Below are positions 18,505-56,483 of a stretch of DNA of 64,000 nucleotides, in pieces. The notes beneath the pieces are model-generated. The model worked only from the letters and a program-made list of their open reading frames with translations. It ran no database searches and was not told the origin of the DNA. The DNA lies in NCBI GenBank assembly GCA_030430565.1, contig JAUIKS010000008.1, positions 175,225 to 239,224 on the forward strand. The letters run 5' to 3'. Positions within the stretch are counted from its first letter, which is position 1; every line of letters starts with the position of its first letter. Origin of the DNA: Polyangia bacterium. GTDB lineage: Bacteria > Myxococcota_A > Polyangia > Nannocystales > Nannocystaceae. The translations under genes were made by a program, and so were the position numbers.

Positions 18505-18576
18505 GCTGGCGTAGCTCAACGGAAGAGCACCTGCTTTGTAACCAGGTGGTTGTGGGTTCGACTCCCACCGCCAGCT
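18505..18576 (+). tRNA. tRNA, anticodon TGT (Thr) by manual folding
   Basis: Acceptor GCTGGCG/CGCCAGC, D-arm GCTC-AACGGAA-GAGC, anticodon arm CCTGC-TTTGTAA-CCAGG (one C.C mismatch at 31:39), variable TGGTT, T-arm GTGGG-TTCGACT-CCCAC. No encoded CCA. Confidence 0.65.
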
Positions 18577-18642
18577 CAACGCACGGGTCCATACCCGGCT
18601 CGGTGTCTATGCGCCGAGCCGGAGGGCTTCGATTTTCCGATT

Positions 18643-45572: not shown

Positions 45573-47369
45573 TCAGAAGAGCACGATCCGCACGTCGCGG
45601 ACGCACGAGAGCCCGCGCAGCAGCTCGCGCGCGAGGTAGCGAAACAGCGTGTCGAGACAGATCTCGCGCGAGAAGCCGCCGTTGCCCGTGGCCAGCAGCG
45701 GCAGCGCCAGGGTCTGCACGTTCAGCGTGTCGGCGTGATAGATGCAGCTGCCCAGGATCTCGCAGATCAGGTCGCGGCTCGGGCCCGGCCCCCCGCCGAA
45801 GCCGCGGCCACGCAGCGTGATCCCGTGGAACACGAAGCGCGCGCTCAACCCCCCCGCCGAGGTCACGACCGCTCGACCCGCGCGCACCGGGATGTAGCGC
45901 TGCGCCTGGTCGTAAACGGCCTCGCCCGCGGCCTGACGGATCGCTCGCGAGACGCCGCTGCGCATGGTCAAGAACTGATCGTCAGAGCTGACGAGCGCCT
46001 CGACGTCCTGATCGACCAGGTCACCGCAGACGATCGTCAGCGTGCGCGCGTCCGGGAAGTCGTAGCGGTCGAGGATCCGCCCGCGCGCCCTGCCGGTGCC
46101 GTCCGCGACCTCGAGGTAGTGCGCGCGCCGAGAGCGGTAGCGCTCGAGGTGGGGCCGCAGCGCGACGTCCTCGACCGCGTCCCAGGGCGAGATTGCGTCG
46201 ACGACCGGATCGATGACGGCGAGCACCTCGGCGAAGGACGAGAAGCGCTCGGAGGGGGACTTCGCCAGGCAGCGCTCGACAATCTCGCTCGTCCGCGCGC
46301 TGATCGCCGGGTTGAGCGAGCGCGGCGGCGTGAGCGGCTCGGTCTTGTGCTTGTGCAGGATCGCGAACCAATTCCCGCCGTCGAAGGCGGGCCGCCCGGT
46401 CAGCGCGTGGTAGAAGGTCGCGCCGAAGCTGTAGATGTCCGCGCGCGTGTCGACGCGGCGTGGATCCTCAGCTTGCTCAGGGGCCATGTACCACGGGCTC
46501 CCGAGCACCTGCCCGACCAGCACCGCCTCGTCGATCTCGCTCGGCCCGCGCGCCAGCCCAAAGTCGACCACGCGCGCCGCCCCTTCGTCGTCGACGAAGA
46601 TGTTCGAGGGCTTGAGGTCGCGGTGGATGATGCCCTCCTGCGCCGCCGCCAACATCCCGCGCGCCGTGTCTCGCATCCACCGGATCACGCGCTCCTCGTC
46701 GATCCCCACGTCGCCTGACTCGCGCTCTTCCGCCCGCATCACGCGCGCGAGATCAAGGCCGTCGATCCACTCCATCACGAGCACGGGCCCGCGCTCGGGG
46801 AGGATGTCGAAGTCGTGGATCTCGACCACGTGCGGCGAGTCGATCTTCGCCAAGATCCGCGCCTCTTGCAGGAAGCGACCCCGCGGGGCGCCCGGCAGCA
46901 GCACCTTGATCGCTACCTGCTTCTCGAGCGTTCGGTGCCGCGCCCGGTACACCACCCCCATCCCCCCGCGCCCGACCTCCTCCAGCACCTCGTAGCGCGC
47001 GCTCACGTCTCCGTCGCCCAGCACGAAGCCCTGCAGATCGTCGCTTGGTGACGGCCGCGTGCTGTGCGTCGCGCCCTCGCGCGAGGGCAGCGTCTCCGCG
47101 CCCTGGGCCCACAACGTCTCCGCGTGCGACGCCCGCTCAGTCGCGTGCTCGCTCCGCTGCGTCTTGCCGCGATCGTGCAGGGTCGTCTCCAGCTCCATCG
47201 CCGGAGGCGGTTCCGCGCCCTCACCCGCCGCGCTCGGGTCCCTGCGCGACGCCGTCATCGCATCCTCCACACGGGCAGCATCCCCCACCCCTTCGTGCGC
47301 AGCAAGCGTCCGCGCGCGGAAATTCGACCCCCGCCCACCGCCGCGACGCTCAGCGAAGGGCCGAAGCAC
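45573..47369 (-). CDS. Ser/Thr protein kinase fused to C-terminal macro-like (ADP-ribose-binding-type) domain
   Basis: Kinase motifs (GRGGMGVVYRARH, AIKVLL, HRDLKPSNIFV, DFGLAR, APE). C-terminal about 190 aa LTIVCGDLVDQDVEALVSSDD...RAIRQAAGEAVYDQAQRY...GRAVVTSAGGLSARFVFHGITL follows macro-domain spacing but lacks canonical NAAN/GGGV. Confidence 0.7.
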   Translation of the reverse strand: MLRPFAERRGGGRGSNFRARTLAAHEGVGDAARVEDAMTASRRDPSAAGEGAEPPPAMELETTLHDRGKTQRSEHATERASHAETLWAQGAETLPSREGATHSTRPSPSDDLQGFVLGDGDVSARYEVLEEVGRGGMGVVYRARHRTLEKQVAIKVLLPGAPRGRFLQEARILAKIDSPHVVEIHDFDILPERGPVLVMEWIDGLDLARVMRAEERESGDVGIDEERVIRWMRDTARGMLAAAQEGIIHRDLKPSNIFVDDEGAARVVDFGLARGPSEIDEAVLVGQVLGSPWYMAPEQAEDPRRVDTRADIYSFGATFYHALTGRPAFDGGNWFAILHKHKTEPLTPPRSLNPAISARTSEIVERCLAKSPSERFSSFAEVLAVIDPVVDAISPWDAVEDVALRPHLERYRSRRAHYLEVADGTGRARGRILDRYDFPDARTLTIVCGDLVDQDVEALVSSDDQFLTMRSGVSRAIRQAAGEAVYDQAQRYIPVRAGRAVVTSAGGLSARFVFHGITLRGRGFGGGPGPSRDLICEILGSCIYHADTLNVQTLALPLLATGNGGFSREICLDTLFRYLARELLRGLSCVRDVRIVLF

Positions 47370-47529: not shown

Positions 47530-50500
47530 TTACATGTCCTCGTAGCCCGCTTTCACGATGTGCAAGGCCCACTCGGTGTCAATCCAGCGGGTCGACTTGT
47601 GCGGTGTCCCGTCGAGGTAGCGGTGGCGATGCACCCGCTCTTGGTCGAGTACCCCGCCAGTCCGCGCGACATCATCTCGGGCCGCGAGCACCCAACCGAG
47701 ATCTGTTGTCGACACCGAACGCTCGGCGAATCCTCCGGTCCCACCATCGACCCGAAGTCCGCCCTTCGCAGCGCCTCCGATGATCCGCAATCGCGTCGAG
47801 CCCTGGGCGATCCATGAACCGGGAGGGTACCGGTCGAGGACACGCTTCACGAGCGCCACGGCTTGCTCGCGCCAGCGACGAGCCAGTGTCCGCGAAGCGC
47901 CGCGTCCCTTGCCGAGCGCTCTCCACGTTGCGAAGTCGACCTCCGGGATCTTCCACGCCGAATCGCGCCAGCGCCCAACCCCGGCGTATCGCCAGCCAGA
48001 CGCGTGCCGGGTCATGACGAACGCCGTCTCCGAGGGGCGACGGTTGGGTACGGGGAGTTCGACCGCGTCAGGCGCGGTCAGCGGTCCTTTGCTCTCCACG
48101 AGTAGGAACAGGTGCCCATCCACACGTGACCACGGACCGCGGGGGGGCTCGGAGAGCTTGAACCTCGCCACCAGGTCCTCGTTGCTCAGGAACTCGCCAA
48201 CGAAGGGCGCGAGCTGCTCGGGACGAACCACGTCGACGACTCGCGCGAGGACGGTCGTCTCCGCTGTGACTGGAAGGTCAGGTGCATCGGGGTTGTCCGA
48301 GCGAAGCTCAAAGCCGCCCTTGGCCTTCACGAGCCGCTTGAGGTGGTGGGCGAAGCCCGTGTGGGTGTCGCCCCGCGCAACCAGGACAACGCGCCCGACG
48401 ACCGCGGCGAGCGGAAGGCCGCGCCCCCACTCGAAGACAACCCAATCGCCGTCGCAGATCGGCTTGGATCCACCGCACATCGAGTCTCCATAGGCGCGGG
48501 TCGCAAATCGATTCTCGGCGGTTTCAACGGGGAGGCGCACGTAGTCCGCTTCAGCCTCAACTTCGACCGCCGGCCTCGAGATTGAACCGGCGGCCACCTC
48601 CAAGCTTGGGTACGCGACGAACCTGCCCCTTGGAACAAGGTCGATGACAGCAGCGAGAGGCTCGACCCACCAGCCGTCGGGCGCCCGCCGAAACTGAACG
48701 CGATACCGAGTGCCGGTTGCTCCCGCGCTTGGTCCGAACCACTGTCGGAGCAGATCCGGTAGCTTGTTGTCACGCGCGCCAACCGGCCGCGCCACATTGA
48801 CCGCGACTTTGACGAAGCGAAACAGCCACATCGAGCCGTCCTCGAGCCGTACCTCGGTATCGCCGTGCGGGAGTCGCTCGCGGCCCTTCGTCGGCAAAAA
48901 CAGGATTGGGCCCTTGGAGTTGTGCGAGACGTTGCAGACGAAGGAACTCTCGCCTGCGATCGAGTCTTCGTCGACTCGGGCGCGACGTTGATAGCGTGCG
49001 AGACGAGCGTCGACGAGCTGCCACGTCATCTCGACGAGCGCGTCGCGAGCCGCGGGGTCTTCCGGCGGCGGCAGCCGGAATCGCAGCGCGTCGTCCTGTA
49101 TGGAGAACCACGGCCCCTTCGTCCACGCCTGGATCGGGTTCTTTCGCCAGTAGCGACGCCACACAGCGGGCTCCGGAGCGCGCGGATCGGGTAGAGCCTT
49201 GACCCCCTTGAGATCCTCGAACAAGACAGGGTTGCGAAGCAGGTAGGCGTGGCTGCGACGCGCGAGCTGCTCGAGCGGCATCCCGTCGAACAGGGCCTCG
49301 GACGTAAGGAGCACTTCGAGCACGACCATCTTGAAGCACTTCGTCAGGCTCTCGCTGGCCTCGACGGCGTGCAGCCAGTCCTCGCCGTGTACGTAGGCTT
49401 TGCGCTCGGCTTCGCCGAGGTCGTTCTCGTCGCCAACGAACTCGAACCAGCTTTTATAGCGCTTTCGAATCGCGCGGATACTCTGTCCGAGTCGAACCAG
49501 TTCTCCGGGTGTTGGGCGAGTTCCACGTTCATCACGGAGTTCGCGGTAGACCTGCACCGCCGGGATCGCGTGGGAGGCCGGCGTGAGTTTCTTGAGCAGC
49601 TCGATGGCCTCGAGCTTGATCTCCACGCTGCATCCGGCCGGGAGTTCCAGCGTCTCCGGTCGCTCGAGGAATTGGGACAGAGGCGGCGCAGACGGTGAGA
49701 GCGTGAGCAGCGTGCGCACGCGGCCGAGGAACACCTTGTGATTGCCGACAAAATCGATGACCTCGAGGACATCTTTGCCCTCCGAAGTTCGCAGGCCGCG
49801 CCCGAGTTGCTGGAGAAACACCAGCGGCGACTCTGTTGGACGCAGCATGACGACCCGGTCGATCTGTGGCACGTCGATGCCCTCGTTGAACAGGTCGACC
49901 GCCGCGATGGCCTCGAGCTGACCGGAGTCGAGCTGCTCGAGGGCGTCACCACGGGACGCCGACGTTTCGCCCGAATGAACCGCGACGACTCGAACGCCCT
50001 TGCCCTTGAGCCATTTCGCAACGTAGTCCGCATGGCCGATCGACACGCAGAACACGAGCGTGCGAGTCGCGGGCCGCTCACACCACGCTTCGTACAGGCG
50101 CGACATCCGGGCCTCGGTCTCCACGAGTCGAGCCAGGTGCTCGATCGTGAACTGACGCCACGGCATGGGTTTGTACTCGGTTGTATCCGCGAGCCCTCGG
50201 TAGTGAAACGGCACAAGCAAACCACGCTGGATGCCCTCGCCAAGGTCGGCGCGAAAGGCAACGTGGTCGTCGAAGATCCCGCCGATATCGCCCTGGTCGG
50301 CGCGCTCCGGTGTGGCCGTAAGGCCGAGCAGGAACTTCGGATCGAGATGCGCGAGGAGCCGCCGGTAGGTCGGTGCGGCCGCGTGGTGCACTTCGTCTAC
50401 GATGACGTAGTCAAAGCTTGTCGCCGAGAGTCGGGCGAGCTGCTCGGGTCGCGTGAGCTTCTGAACCGACGCGAATACGAACTCGGATGACAGGTCGTCA

Positions 50501-51816
50501 GACGCCCCGTGAAAGAAGCCAAAAGTCGCGCTGGGAAACACGCGGCGAAACGTAGCGCTCGCCTGAATGAGCAGCTCACGGCGATGGACGAGGAACAGCA
50601 CACGAGTGCGAAGCCCCCGTCGTTCGCAAAACGCTTTGACATCGAATGCGGCCAGAAACGTCTTGCCGAGACCCGTCGCCAGGACCACCAAGGCGCGCTC
50701 GCGGCCATCGTCGCGGCTGCGCGCGAGAGCCTCGAGCGCGTCATTCTGGACACCGCGCGGAGCGACCAGCTCGTCAGTGATACCCTCTGCTTCCCCGATC
50801 GGCAGCTGCGCGTTGTCGGCACTCCGTCGGGCGTATTCCTGAAGCCATACCTCATCAAGGGTTCTCGCTCTCGCCCAAAGCTCGTCGAATGCTCCGACGA
50901 TGGCCGCGTACGCAGCGGGGTCGCGCGCGGCCTCTGTTCGCAGGTTCCACTCGACCCCAACGCCCAGGGCTGAGTCGGACCAGTTTGAGCTCCCGACGAA
51001 CGCGACAGCAAAATCGGGACCCTCAAACCGCCATGACTTTGGGTGAAACGCTCGATTATTTTGCAGCCTGGTCTCAACAACGCGTACCGAGAACGATCCG
51101 GGGCCCTCAGCTTGTGCGAGCTGCGCCCAGTCGAGTAGCCGGCGAAGCGCCTGAACCTGGGTGATGGCCAAGTAATCGCCAGTAACGACGCGAATCGTTG
51201 CACCACGTTCGAGCGCTTCATCAATCTGCACAGAGAGCGTATCTACCCCGGTGTGTTGGACGAAAGCCGCGACAATAGAGATCTGATCCGCGCGCTCAAA
51301 CAAATGGCGGACCGGACGACGAAACGGGTCGTCGGGACCCCCCACAACAAGTGGAGCCGCACGCGCAGCTCGGTTCGCCCACTCGTGCTCGGTGGTGGGC
51401 CGAGGGATGAATCCTGCCTGTTTGTAGTTCCCGTACCTGGGAATGACGAAACGAACGCCGCCCCGTGGGTCATCAACATCTCCCGTGTAGCGGGGAATCA
51501 CATGAATATGGAGATGGTCGACGGTCTGGCCAGCGGCATGTCCGGAGTTGAAGCCGACGTTGTATCCGTCTGGCTTGTGCGATGCGTCGAGCTGTCGTTT
51601 GACCGTCTCGACGAGTTCGAATATCGCGGTTTGCTCCTCGCGGCTGGCGTCGAACCAGGTCGCCACCACCCGATGGGGGATCACGAGCGTGTGCCCGTCA
51701 CTAACGGGGTAGGCGTCGCGAATGGCAAAGGCCAGCTCGTTCGAGGCAACCCACTCGCTGTTCGAAATCTCTGTAAACGGAGAACTCACGACGAATCGAC
51801 CTCGAGCCTTACACAC
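47530..51816 (-). CDS. 1428-aa fusion: HIT hydrolase - PLD (HKD) nuclease - SF2/ResIII helicase - DUF3427-like region - B3-like DNA-binding domain - LexA/UmuD-type S24 peptidase - unknown C-terminal domain
   Basis: HIT HLHIHVIP. PLD FHPKSWRF...GSSNWS. Helicase I ATGLGKT, II VDEVHH, III LTATPER, VI LQQLGRGLR. B3-like FVCNVSHNSKGPILFLPTKGRERLP..GSMWLFRF. S24 site VAAG(S) at aa 1074-1077, GDSM at 1110-1113, DGDWVVF, HLKRL (Ser1112/Lys1160). Confidence 0.85.
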   Translation of the reverse strand: MCKARGRFVVSSPFTEISNSEWVASNELAFAIRDAYPVSDGHTLVIPHRVVATWFDASREEQTAIFELVETVKRQLDASHKPDGYNVGFNSGHAAGQTVDHLHIHVIPRYTGDVDDPRGGVRFVIPRYGNYKQAGFIPRPTTEHEWANRAARAAPLVVGGPDDPFRRPVRHLFERADQISIVAAFVQHTGVDTLSVQIDEALERGATIRVVTGDYLAITQVQALRRLLDWAQLAQAEGPGSFSVRVVETRLQNNRAFHPKSWRFEGPDFAVAFVGSSNWSDSALGVGVEWNLRTEAARDPAAYAAIVGAFDELWARARTLDEVWLQEYARRSADNAQLPIGEAEGITDELVAPRGVQNDALEALARSRDDGRERALVVLATGLGKTFLAAFDVKAFCERRGLRTRVLFLVHRRELLIQASATFRRVFPSATFGFFHGASDDLSSEFVFASVQKLTRPEQLARLSATSFDYVIVDEVHHAAAPTYRRLLAHLDPKFLLGLTATPERADQGDIGGIFDDHVAFRADLGEGIQRGLLVPFHYRGLADTTEYKPMPWRQFTIEHLARLVETEARMSRLYEAWCERPATRTLVFCVSIGHADYVAKWLKGKGVRVVAVHSGETSASRGDALEQLDSGQLEAIAAVDLFNEGIDVPQIDRVVMLRPTESPLVFLQQLGRGLRTSEGKDVLEVIDFVGNHKVFLGRVRTLLTLSPSAPPLSQFLERPETLELPAGCSVEIKLEAIELLKKLTPASHAIPAVQVYRELRDERGTRPTPGELVRLGQSIRAIRKRYKSWFEFVGDENDLGEAERKAYVHGEDWLHAVEASESLTKCFKMVVLEVLLTSEALFDGMPLEQLARRSHAYLLRNPVLFEDLKGVKALPDPRAPEPAVWRRYWRKNPIQAWTKGPWFSIQDDALRFRLPPPEDPAARDALVEMTWQLVDARLARYQRRARVDEDSIAGESSFVCNVSHNSKGPILFLPTKGRERLPHGDTEVRLEDGSMWLFRFVKVAVNVARPVGARDNKLPDLLRQWFGPSAGATGTRYRVQFRRAPDGWWVEPLAAVIDLVPRGRFVAYPSLEVAAGSISRPAVEVEAEADYVRLPVETAENRFATRAYGDSMCGGSKPICDGDWVVFEWGRGLPLAAVVGRVVLVARGDTHTGFAHHLKRLVKAKGGFELRSDNPDAPDLPVTAETTVLARVVDVVRPEQLAPFVGEFLSNEDLVARFKLSEPPRGPWSRVDGHLFLLVESKGPLTAPDAVELPVPNRRPSETAFVMTRHASGWRYAGVGRWRDSAWKIPEVDFATWRALGKGRGASRTLARRWREQAVALVKRVLDRYPPGSWIAQGSTRLRIIGGAAKGGLRVDGGTGGFAERSVSTTDLGWVLAARDDVARTGGVLDQERVHRHRYLDGTPHKSTRWIDTEWALHIVKAGYEDM

Positions 51817-51911: not shown

Positions 51912-52907
51912 TCACTGCTCAAAGCAGTATAGATGTGCTGGGAGTGCGCACGGAATGGTGTCTCCAAACGCGGACCAACGTTCATCCGTGTAGTTTGATT
52001 TCCCGAACTGTCCTGGCTCGAGATCGTCGCTGGTCCACTCAGAACAGTGCGCCATGTCGGGATGCTGCTCTCCCCAGGGCACAGTATTCGTCCACACCGA
52101 TACACCGTCGAGTAATTGACCGCTCTCGTCCATATCGATGGGGGCTTCGAGTCCTCCATCGACCAAGTCGTTCCAGTTGTCGGCTACCTTGGTCCCGTCG
52201 ACCAGGACATATCGTCCCTCGGACTTGAAGAAGTGTGTAGACGGCGAGTACTCGGACCCGCTGATCCAAGGACGAAAGTCGATGGCGTTCTCGAAGCCGG
52301 CCTCAAGCGCACGCTCGCGGCAGCGATTGATTGCACCGTCGATACCAGATAGATCTCCGAAATACGCTTCACTCGAGACAAAGACGACGCGATCGCGGGC
52401 GCAGGCGGTGTTGCAGCCGTCGTCTTTCTGATTGCCATCGTCACACTCCTCGTTAGGGCCAACGAAACCGTCGCCGCACATCGGGAGCAGACACGCGTTG
52501 GTGCATTCGTCGCTATTCTCGTCGTTGCCGTCGTCGCACTGCTCCCCTACTTGGACCTGACCGTCGCCACAATCCGCCGGCTCGCTCGTGTTGGTCGGGT
52601 CGCTGGTTGTGGAGCTCATCGCTGTCGTCGTGCCCGACTCGCTCTCGGACATCGTCCCGTCGGGACCACCGGTTGTCGTCTCGCCGCCCGTCATCGATGT
52701 GGGCTCAGTTTCGCTCTCGCTCCCCGACCCAACCTCGCTCATGCTCTCGCTCTCGGAGTCCCACGTCACCGTGATCTCGAGCGCTTCTTGCGAGGCCGCC
52801 TCGGCTTGGCATCCGACGAGGAACATGGCCAAGGCCGCGTGTTCGGCGTGTTCGAGTACTCGGGTTGACTTCGAGGGTCGCATCACGGACTCGCTCATCA
52901 TCGCCAA
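51912..52907 (-). CDS. Secreted protein with two Myxococcus cysteine-rich repeats and C-terminal DUF1554-like domain
   Basis: Hydrophobic signal LAMFLVGC. T/S/E-rich linker. CGDGQVQVGEQCDDGNDENSDEC and CGDGFVGPNEECDDGNQKDDGC. Cys-containing C-terminal domain ending LYCFEQ. Confidence 0.6.
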   Translation of the reverse strand: MAMMSESVMRPSKSTRVLEHAEHAALAMFLVGCQAEAASQEALEITVTWDSESESMSEVGSGSESETEPTSMTGGETTTGGPDGTMSESESGTTTAMSSTTSDPTNTSEPADCGDGQVQVGEQCDDGNDENSDECTNACLLPMCGDGFVGPNEECDDGNQKDDGCNTACARDRVVFVSSEAYFGDLSGIDGAINRCRERALEAGFENAIDFRPWISGSEYSPSTHFFKSEGRYVLVDGTKVADNWNDLVDGGLEAPIDMDESGQLLDGVSVWTNTVPWGEQHPDMAHCSEWTSDDLEPGQFGKSNYTDERWSAFGDTIPCALPAHLYCFEQ

Positions 52908-53021: not shown

Positions 53022-56000
53022 CTACGTCGCGCGGTAGCGTGTCCCGCGGGCGTTGCCACGGCAGGTCACCAGACCTTCTGTGCCCAACCGGGACAAGCTC
53101 GCTCGCAGCTGCAAGGGTGTACCTCCAGTCAGCTCACGCAACTCCGCCGCGGACGCGGGATGGTCAAAGGAGCGCACCGCCTCGAGCACCGCGCGATCGT
53201 ATTCCTGACGACCCTGCGCGGTCCGGGTGTTGATCGCCCGGGCCCGCGGTGATGTCCGCGTCGTGCCGCGCTTCGTCGTCTTCGCGCCCTTCTTCGCTGG
53301 CACAACACAAGCGACAGCCGGACGAGACGCGGCCACGTCTTCATCGCGCTCGACATCACCGTCGGACTCCAGCAGCGCCATCAGCTCCTCGGGCGAGAAG
53401 CGCGTCACGCCGCCGTCGCTCGCCAGCAGGCCCTCGGCCAGCGCCCGCTTCTGCTCGTGCAGCTCGAGCACCGCCTGCTCGATCGTCCCCTGCGACACGA
53501 AGCGGACGACCGTCACGGGCTTGTCCTGACCGATCCGGTGCGCGCGGTCGCTGGCCTGATCCTCGACGGCGGGGTTCCACCACGGGTCGAGGTGGAGCAC
53601 GTAGTCGGCGGCCGTCAGGTTGAGCCCGGTCCCGCCCGCCTTGAGCGAGATGAGGAACAGCGGCGCGTCTCCGGTCTGCCAGCGCTCGACCAGCTCGGCA
53701 CGCCGCTTCGCGGGGGTGGAGCCGTCGAGGTAGAGGTGCTCGAGCGTGGTCGCGTCCAGGCGCTCGCGGACCAGCGCGAGCAGGCCGGTGAACTGGCTGA
53801 ACACCAGCGCCCGGTGGCCCTCGGCGTGCAGCTCCGTGACGAGTTCCATGAAGGACTCGAGCTTGGACGAGGTCGCGCGCGAGCCCTCCTCCATGAGCTT
53901 GGGGTGGCACGCGAGCTGGCGAAGCCGCGTGAGCGCGGCCAGGATCGCGAAGCGGGCGTCTGGATCGTCTTCCCCAGGCCCATCTCGTCGGCCAGGCACG
54001 CGCCGGCGCCCCACTCCGCCAGGCGCATCAGCCACTCGAAGCCCTCACGCTGGTAGTCCCGCAGCGTCCCGTTGAACGCGGAGGGGACCCGCGGCTCGAT
54101 CTCCCGCCGCTATGCGCTCGAGCAACCTCGAGGTCGCGTCGTCGATGTCGAGCTGGGCCGCGTCCTCGACGAGTTCGGCGACGACGTTGACGGCCGCCGC
54201 TCCGCTCACGAGCTTGTCGCGCACGGGCGCGAGCGCGGCGTCGCTGTCGGCGAGTCGCCGCGCGAGCGCGCGCTCGAGCTCGACGAAGCGCTCGGGGCCC
54301 ACGCGGACGAAGCGACGACCCCCGCGCGCGGCCGCGAGCAGCTCACGCAGCGGGATGCGCTCGCCGTCGACCGTGACCTCGCCCTCGACCTCGAACCACT
54401 TCGGGCCCCGCCGCAGCTTCACGCGCAGGTCTCTCGGCGACGCTCGCTTCTTGAGCACGCGCCACGCCTTGCGCCCGGTCCACTCGATCGCGAGCGGGGG
54501 CTCCCCCTCCTCGGCGCGGCGCTGGAGCTCCGTGAGCAGCGCGAGCGCGGGCTGGAGCTCTTCGACGCGGTACTGGTGCTCGCGCTCCGTTCGGAAGCGC
54601 TCGAGCTCGAGCTCGCGCTCGAGCGCTTCGACGGCGCGGCGCTCTTGCTCGAGATCGCGCCGGGCGTGCACACGCTCGCCATCGAGCGCCCCGTACACGC
54701 TCGTGGGTCCCTGTCCCGGCGGCCATACCGAGCCGCCCTCACCGAGCGGCGCGCTCACGAGGGACACGACGAGTGATTCGTCGTCGGGCGTGAGACGCAC
54801 GACGAGCGCGGCGCCGCGTGAGACGCTTCGGCCCTGAAGCGCCGGCGGCAGCTCGAGCCCGACCGCGGGCTGGAGCTGTTGAAGCAGCGGGAGCAGCGAG
54901 GCGTAGGCGTCCTCCGGGAGACCGGCGCGATGCGTCTCGATCAACTCACGCAGCCCGTCGACGAGCGGCGTGCGCTCACAGAACACGCACACGCCGGTTT
55001 TGGGCTCGAACACGAACAACACCGCCCGCGCGTGATCCTCGGCGAGTTCGTGCTCTCGCAACGCGCCGAGGCGAAGCTCGAGATACGCGAGCTCCTCTCG
55101 CTGCGTCACGACGAGCGTCGGCGAAACCTCGCGCAGGCGTATGCGTTTGCTCGGATCGTCCGCCCGGAAGACGAGCTCGTGCTTGCACAACGCCCGCAGC
55201 GCGCTGAGCTGCGTACGCGCCGAGACCGAGCGTCGAGTCCAGCGGTAGTCATGCTGGATCTCGAGGGCGTCGGCGATCTCGCGGTCGAGCGGCGATGGCT
55301 CGGCGCTCTGCCACTGGATGTCATTCGGGCTGCACTTGCTCCCCGGGCTCCAACCGCCGCGCTTCTTTTGTTTCTGCACCGCAGGCCGAACCGTCAGCGC
55401 GCCGTCGCGCAGGTCCACGCGCCAGGTGACTCTCCGGGGCGCCGTGCTCGCGACAACACCGACGCTGTGCCGTCGCACCAGGCGATCGAGCGCCTCGACC
55501 GTCCGTGACCAGCCAAAACCCCCGGCGATCTCGAGCAGCGCTTCGTGGAGCCCGTGATCTGGATCGAAGAGCGCGTCGAGCGTCCATTCAACCAAGGAAC
55601 GCGCGTGGGCACGTTCGTGTCGCTTACGGTGGAAATCAAAAGACAGCGGCCGCGCGCGGTAGTCTCGCAGCGACAGGCTGACGGTCTTGCCCAGCTCGGA
55701 GTGCAGCACCGTGAGCGTCCGCTCTTCGCGGTGGAGCTCGACGATGATCTCGGCGACCAGCACAGGCTCCAGCGCGCGGGGTTGCGACCGGATGGCGTCG
55801 CGGAGCTCCGTCAGCGCGCGCGCGAGCAGCTCGAGCGGACGCGCAGGCAGCGGAGTAGACCAGAGCCCCATTCGCTTGCGATCGAGCGCGGTCCGCCGCG
55901 CCTCGGTGTACAGCTGCTTGCGCGCGGCCTCACGGGCGCGGTCACCAACGCTGCTCCAAAGGACATCCATCATGGGAGGCGGCGTGAGCGGTGGCACCAA

Positions 56001-56483
56001 CAGCTGGATATAGGTCGGCGTACCGACGTGATCGAAAAGGCCCGGCGGGATCCCGCCCCAAGCCGCGAGCTCGGGCACCGGCGCGTCGAGCAGATCCGCG
56101 ACGCCGTGTCGCTTCGCCCAGGCGCGCAGCGGCTTGGGCTCGCGCGGCGGCGAAGGAACATCGATCCCGACGTAGAGCTGGCGGGGCGACCAGCGGACGC
56201 GCTGGTCATCCGTGTCGGCGACGGAGAGCGCGTCGACGAGTTCCCGAATCAGGATGAAGCGCATCTCTTCGGGTAGCTCCTCGTCGAGATACCGGTGAAA
56301 CACGGGGCTCGAGAGCAGCTCTCCCATCGTCTGAATGTTCAGGAGTCGGGCGAAGTCACGGACGAACTCGACGGTGTCCCAATCACCGTCGATCTCGTCG
56401 ACGGCGATCGAGTTCAACATCCGCGCCCGCGCTGGTACTCGGAGCCAGCGCTTTAACCCTTGGACCGTCGTCGGGGCTCCCAT
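53022..56483 (-). pseudogene. SNF2-family helicase, disrupted (frameshift before DYQ motif; internal deletion of ATPase lobe 1 after Walker A)
   Basis: An 812-aa N-terminal ORF (54045..56483) ends in a stop. +1 frame reads [40 protein letters not shown] (SNF2 Q/Walker A). Then a frame change gives [22 protein letters not shown], joined directly to helicase-C (LDGSTP, WWNPAVEDQASDRAHRIGQ). About 250 aa incl. DExH missing. Confidence 0.55.

Follow-up and report, generated by a model that had tools for sequence, protein, structure and literature searches.

The closest solved structure to the intact members of the protein family considered here is the SNF2/Rad54-like core of Sulfolobus solfataricus SSO1653 (PDB 1z63; E = 2.2e-88 for member P0032), a motor of two lobes, with motifs I–III in lobe 1 and motifs IV–VI in lobe 2. 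SF2/SNF2 ATPases of this kind require the Walker B motif and motif III of lobe 1 for the motor to work. An SNF2-family gene on the minus strand of a 64,000-nucleotide (nt) stretch of a Polyangia bacterium genome (GCA_030430565.1, contig JAUIKS010000008.1, 175,225–239,224 of the forward strand; this whole stretch is referred to as the window, and all coordinates are positions in it) retains, by comparison with 1z63, only motif I of lobe 1 together with all of lobe 2. From comparison with its relatives, this gene is very probably a recently inactivated pseudogene of a large bacterial SNF2-family DNA translocase. It shares with the intact members of one SNF2 family that carries a long N-terminal region (P0024–P0172) the N-terminal region itself, the Q motif, motif I and a typical lobe 2, and differs from them in missing ~220 amino acids (aa) of lobe 1, in its broken reading frame, and in a winged-helix-like tail of its own. 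Its membership in that family by descent is given by the ~790-aa N-terminal region directly upstream of the motor.

Among described families, the nearest NCBIfam models were the SCO1167/SCO6262 family helicase and pilus_reg_Snf2, and because intact members score far below every equivalog cut-off, the function of the family is regarded as uncharacterised. The best matches in defence libraries were the PADLOC models named DpdE, after the protein of the Dpd 7-deazaguanine DNA-modification/restriction system, of which PDLC02850 covers intact family members end to end and matches the window protein at residues 293–790. Assignment as DpdE of the Dpd system was rejected, with a score for NCBIfam NF041062 of 25 bits against a cut-off of 500, and no Dpd-type genes among the neighbours scanned. 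ZorD of Zorya and DrmD of DISARM share the SNF2 lobe 2 with the window gene, and both were rejected (61.7 against a cut-off of 1500, and 36 against 610, respectively), with no partner genes for either system in the window.

The gene begins with an 812-aa open reading frame (ORF; 56483–54045), for which no significant match was found in Pfam or NCBIfam, and of which residues 1–794 (54102–56483) are in the native frame by ORF call, phmmer homologues and conserved residues. Since the alignment to P0024 opens at ORF residue 2, the ATG at 56483 is supported as the true start over that of the public gene call for this fragment (P0001, 791 aa), which starts 21 codons late (56421–56483, minus strand). 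At a small lesion (54101–54110), lying 15 codons upstream of the DYQ motif and shifting the frame by a net −2 modulo 3, the ORF passes into an out-of-frame tail that ends at a TGA stop (54045–54101, with the TGA at 54045–54047). The SNF2 sequence continues in the +1 frame as a middle piece of 51 codons (53957–54109), which consists of a linker, the Q motif (LRDYQ) and motif I/Walker A (GLGKT), ends in IQT, and is assigned by Pfam, tblastn, conservation and codon-position GC content; a TAG at 54110–54112 closes the +1 frame upstream of it. This piece (50 residues) matches positions 1–34 of the 290 positions of Pfam SNF2-rel_dom (E = 1.2e-8), and is 72% identical to residues 870–915 of protein P0002 (tblastn, E = 2e-16).

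Straight after IQT the original frame resumes, and stays open to the stop codon at 53022–53024. It encodes the last part of the SNF2 domain and, intact, a RecA-like lobe 2 carrying motifs IV–VI (53358–53956), recognised by Helicase_C, identity to P0002 (56% over the C-terminal part by tblastn), conservation, and GC content at third codon positions (GC3). The Helicase_C match is complete (2–110 of 110, E = 4.8e-22, corresponding to 53529–53864). The N- and C-terminal parts lie in one frame, with the offset limited to the 51-codon middle piece; between them, in that frame, are 49 scrambled codons that include a single TGA. The GC-rich codon position gave independent confirmation of both frame switches, because it moves by one base and then back: it is the third position in the N-terminal part (0.85), is shifted by one base at 54100–53960 (0.98), and is restored in the C-terminal part (0.96). 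An earlier examination of the letters and their ORFs (the sequence-only reading) had described an 812-aa ORF with a frame change before DYQ and an SNF2 start in the +1 frame, which were found where it had placed them and agree with the SNF2-rel_dom match, and a second frame change straight after IQT into the downstream linker motif, to which frame reading and codon-position GC both led. The common frame of the N- and C-terminal parts goes beyond what that reading described. No frameshifts or stops other than those described were found in the surviving gene sequence.

The second switch coincides with a large deletion. Alignment of the window sequence with 11 family members using MAFFT, a comparison with intact relatives that the sequence-only reading had proposed, produced a single gap of 214–224 residues between GLGKTIQT and the downstream linker motif, with the junction at 53954–53960, and the missing stretch was estimated from genomic spacing at about 213–240 aa. 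The earlier estimate of ~250 aa lost from lobe 1 is therefore right as to the loss and too large as to its size. From the frames, the deletion is 3n+1 nt, about 0.65 kb. Lost with it are motifs Ia, Ib, Ic, II (the DExx Walker B) and III and the helical region that follows, and kept are the Q motif, motif I and motifs IV–VI; the absence of the DExH box and motifs Ia–III had also been noted from the letters, and 78 of the 227 conserved columns (those at least 80% conserved among 113 full-length family members) fall within the gap. Genomic spacing was measured as the interval separating the N-terminal region from the C-terminal part in 73 loci of relatives, in which the two parts are colinear and 780–861 nt apart, always in frame, compared with 141 nt in the window. 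With tblastn, residues 916–1138 of P0002 matched nothing on either strand of the window, and no displaced or inverted copy of the missing lobe 1 was found there. Near the junction, no long direct or inverted repeats were found, merely short GC-rich chance matches.

For the small lesion, the distance from a conserved Leu (in LLER) to the Tyr of DYQ was used, which is exactly 25 residues (75 nt) for 103 of the 113 members and 70 nt in the window. Because the spacing is otherwise near-invariant, a 5-nt deletion is the most parsimonious origin, with the loss of 2 nt or the gain of 1 nt as possible alternatives. The two lesions are ~145 bp apart and their sizes sum to a multiple of 3 nt, which explains why the N- and C-terminal parts share a frame. 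The following history is proposed. The intact ancestor probably encoded about 1380 aa, made up of an N-terminal accessory region of ~790 aa, an SNF2 ATPase motor of two lobes and a short tail with a winged helix, and would have been destroyed by two deletions, one small (most likely 5 bp, 54101–54110) and one of ~0.65 kb (53954–53960), which, being closely spaced, may both stem from a single error-prone repair event. With lobe 1 reduced to motif I, the gene would be unable to form an ATP site, and because Walker B and motif III are both lost, we infer that its product would neither hydrolyse ATP nor translocate on DNA. Measured against an SNF2 ATPase, the locus has lobe 2 with motifs IV–VI, an incomplete lobe 1 and no single uninterrupted frame; measured against a pseudogene, it has frame disruption, loss of an essential segment, and no homologue with the truncated form.

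The family was delimited by a full HMMER (phmmer) scan with the 812-aa ORF at E ≤ 1e-3, which returned 1407 homologues of the N-terminal region; members of full length typically have 1150–1450 aa. The best homologues align end to end (residues 2–797 of P0024 to query residues 2–793), and the region constitutes a long accessory domain of one bacterial SNF2 helicase family, distributed over Myxococcota, Planctomycetota, Cyanobacteria, Bacteroidota, Gammaproteobacteria and other groups. All four intact members scanned with Pfam (P0024, P0026, P0028 and P0032) have a complete SNF2-rel_dom (1–290 of 290) followed by Helicase_C. Judged by its homologues and their loci, the family is a common, uncharacterised stand-alone bacterial SNF2 translocase; a literature search on the SNF2 family and on the sequencing run accession given below returned nothing useful.

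Outside the gap, the window sequence keeps 144 of the remaining 149 conserved columns (31/32 N-terminal, 21/23 in the middle piece and 92/94 C-terminal), and retention in the N- and C-terminal parts exceeds the family mean over the 113 members. The protein spacing test used the 110 of 149 representative homologues in which both motifs were located, and in none was the short architecture present, the distance from motif I to the D.WWNP motif of lobe 2 being 346–409 aa compared with about 134 aa here; short spacing was likewise absent from all 73 genomic loci. Relatives sharing the short architecture, which, if functional, were one of the two findings that the sequence-only reading had named as undoing its suggestion of a pseudogene, were thus sought and not encountered, and that suggestion is supported by these two tests and by the gap relative to the 113 members. 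As far as the sequences compared can tell, the short form is not a natural variant. Because 144 of 149 conserved residues are kept and no further frameshifts or stops are present, either the damage is recent or the fragments are still under selection, and an evolutionarily recent inactivation is the favoured reading.

Three points weigh against a young pseudogene and bear on the alternatives discussed below. Very high retention of conserved residues fits fragments still under selection as well. The lesions are known from assemblies, and there is a small probability of a consensus error or of a deletion variant in part of the sequenced population. Finally, the collections searched contain no close relative against which to fix the breakpoints, exact deletion sizes, age and selection on the fragments: the nearest relatives reach 30–36% identity over the N-terminal region and 67% over the C-terminal one, the N-terminal alignment is too divergent for a pattern search, and no close orthologue was found by exact look-up, in 90% identity clusters (singletons), in genome contigs, or in metagenome contigs with the N-terminal region.

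The 29-nt run of motif I codons left of the junction (GAGATGGGCCTGGGGAAGACGATCCAGAC) recurs without mismatch in 8 metagenome contigs (L082–L089; JAABU*, JAABVA, JAAUYK). Seven of these carry an SNF2 gene that is merely 36% identical near motif I, six of the seven matching the helicase region at 33%, and in the eighth (L086) the match is confined to 38 residues around motif I, at 58%. These contigs were rejected as relatives, their SNF2 genes being unrelated and the match a convergence of a conserved motif with GC-rich codon usage.

If the lesions were an assembly or consensus artefact, the real gene would be intact, with ~1380 codons, and the lesions would stem from assembly, polishing or a minority variant. 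Both lie within 150 bp in an otherwise perfect gene, which is how a local assembly problem could look. The Logan assembly of run ERR3428547 (32.5-kb contig) is, against this, 100% identical to the window over 18,879 bp (62923–44045) including both lesions, and was made with a different assembler; the 346-kb NCBI contig has the same split products as the Logan contig, with the reservation that the two assemblies may share one read set. An artefact is further disfavoured by the lack of a long repeat near the junction able to cause collapse, by the small lesion being best read as a 5-nt deletion and not as a homopolymer error, and by the missing segment not lying elsewhere in the window. The assembly error that the sequence-only reading had offered as its alternative is accordingly weakened by the identical second assembly, and is kept as an improbable explanation.

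A split gene with working pieces is also unlikely. Under this explanation, the 812-aa product, a product comprising lobe 2 and the winged helix (with candidate starts at GTG 54035 or ATG 53894), or both, would serve in DNA binding or regulation without ATPase activity. Both fragments have open frames and retain nearly all their conserved residues, and gene callers predict both as proteins, of 791 aa and 290 aa; a young pseudogene would equally be expected to retain those residues, and long open frames persist by chance at 70% GC. ATPase-dead relatives apparently exist, at least P0031, yet the architecture of the window gene occurs in no relative. No promoter-like or terminator-like signals were found in a scan, and no good ribosome-binding site was seen by eye before ATG 53894.

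A remnant retained for its own use is judged very unlikely; here the N-terminal accessory domain and a separately translated protein of lobe 2 and winged helix would regulate by binding DNA without ATP, or would act in a dominant-negative way on an intact paralogue encoded elsewhere. If it were true, the near-perfect conservation of the fragments would reflect selection and not youth. Programmed recoding or rearrangement, in which a working protein would be recovered through frameshifting, read-through of the stop or inversion of DNA, draws on the shared frame of the N- and C-terminal parts with one TGA between them, but is effectively refuted because the catalytic segment is absent: a fused product would still have neither Walker B nor motif III, a search of both strands of the window found no other cassette for lobe 1, and there are no flanking inverted repeats of note.

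Read as a young pseudogene, the locus does not belong in counts of functional helicases, and the public gene calls (791 aa and 290 aa) call for merging into a single entry marked as a pseudogene. It offers a clean case of a gene at an early stage of decay through deletion, in a large genome rich in GC, and has little significance beyond annotation, being an ordinary pseudogene of a known kind of gene.

Loss of ATPase motifs was also seen within the family, in the full-length representative P0031 (1387 aa), which has GLGKV at motif I, DNAR for DEAQ, LLSTP for LTGTP, and no DPWWNP; from these degenerate motifs, ATPase-dead paralogues of the SNF2 family apparently exist in nature. A SWIM-like CxC...CxH arrangement was seen by eye in P0024, P0028 and P0032, just before a conserved LLEWTLDA.HD block. 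The cysteines are absent from the window protein (residues ~283–310, window ~55590–55640, minus strand) and from P0026, P0033, P0034, P0036 and P0037, and Pfam called no SWIM domain in the family members tested.

The C-terminal tail, comprising the last ~115 residues (53025–53357, minus strand) and annotated as a probable winged helix-turn-helix (wHTH) segment at 53025–53255 ahead of the stop codon, has no homologue among the relatives. Pfam matches were weak (GntR and HTH_27, E = 0.05–0.16). A single-sequence AlphaFold2 (AF2) model has a helix-helix-helix-strand-strand topology at a low-confidence predicted local distance difference test (pLDDT) score of 58.6, and almost all of the best Foldseek matches to it are winged-helix regulators, of ArsR, MarR and Rrf2 types (E about 1e-2), by which the tail is probably a wHTH domain. 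Codon bias is much weaker in the tail, with a GC3 of 0.74 compared with 0.96 in the helicase lobe, and this, together with the missing homologue, suggests a lineage-specific addition. The sequence-only reading had described intact helicase-C motifs followed by a wHTH tail; the former are confirmed by the Helicase_C match, and the latter is weakly supported by the Pfam matches and the model.

The genes flanking the SNF2 gene are ordinary chromosomal ones, encoding glutathione S-transferase (GST), guanylate cyclase, peroxiredoxin, a cyclic nucleotide monophosphate (cNMP)-binding protein and many Ser/Thr kinases. Adjacent to it is a low-GC stretch (45.5–53 kb) with three genes on the minus strand, encoding a kinase-Macro protein, a 1428-aa HIT-PLD-helicase-S24 protein and a Cys-rich protein. 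The GC content of the SNF2 gene is that of the backbone (0.68–0.73), compared with 0.58–0.66 in the low-GC island. No homologue of the HIT-PLD-helicase gene was detected in any of the 80 relatives' loci (tblastn, E = 1e-5), and a functional link between the two genes was rejected on this result. The earlier proposal that the SNF2 gene is a remnant of a second helicase module of the island is not supported, given a widespread stand-alone family, backbone GC and no such homologue beside the relatives, and the pseudogene is no evidence that the low-GC segment is a two-helicase defence module.

Within the island, the 1428-aa protein (47530–51816) joins a HIT domain at its N-terminus to a PLD nuclease domain, a ResIII/Helicase_C motor, a middle region with no assignment and a peptidase domain of S24 (LexA-like) type. 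Its residues 171–760 match PADLOC mREase_IV, a Type IV methyl-directed restriction enzyme (E = 4.7e-97), for which the HIT and S24 additions look unusual. The product of the adjoining gene (45573–47369) combines a Ser/Thr protein kinase with a Macro domain and strongly matches PD-T4-6-type kinases of PADLOC (E = 1e-69), and the two genes may form a defence-like pair. The third gene (51912–52907) encodes a Cys-rich acidic repeat protein (TIGR02232 myxo_disulf_rpt, DUF4215) and has the lowest GC of the region (0.58–0.60); the repeat takes its name from myxobacteria, a hint of a Myxococcota source. Elsewhere in the window, its sole tRNA gene, a tRNA-Thr with anticodon TGT (18505–18577, plus strand), coincides with a GC dip to 0.587 at 18–19 kb.

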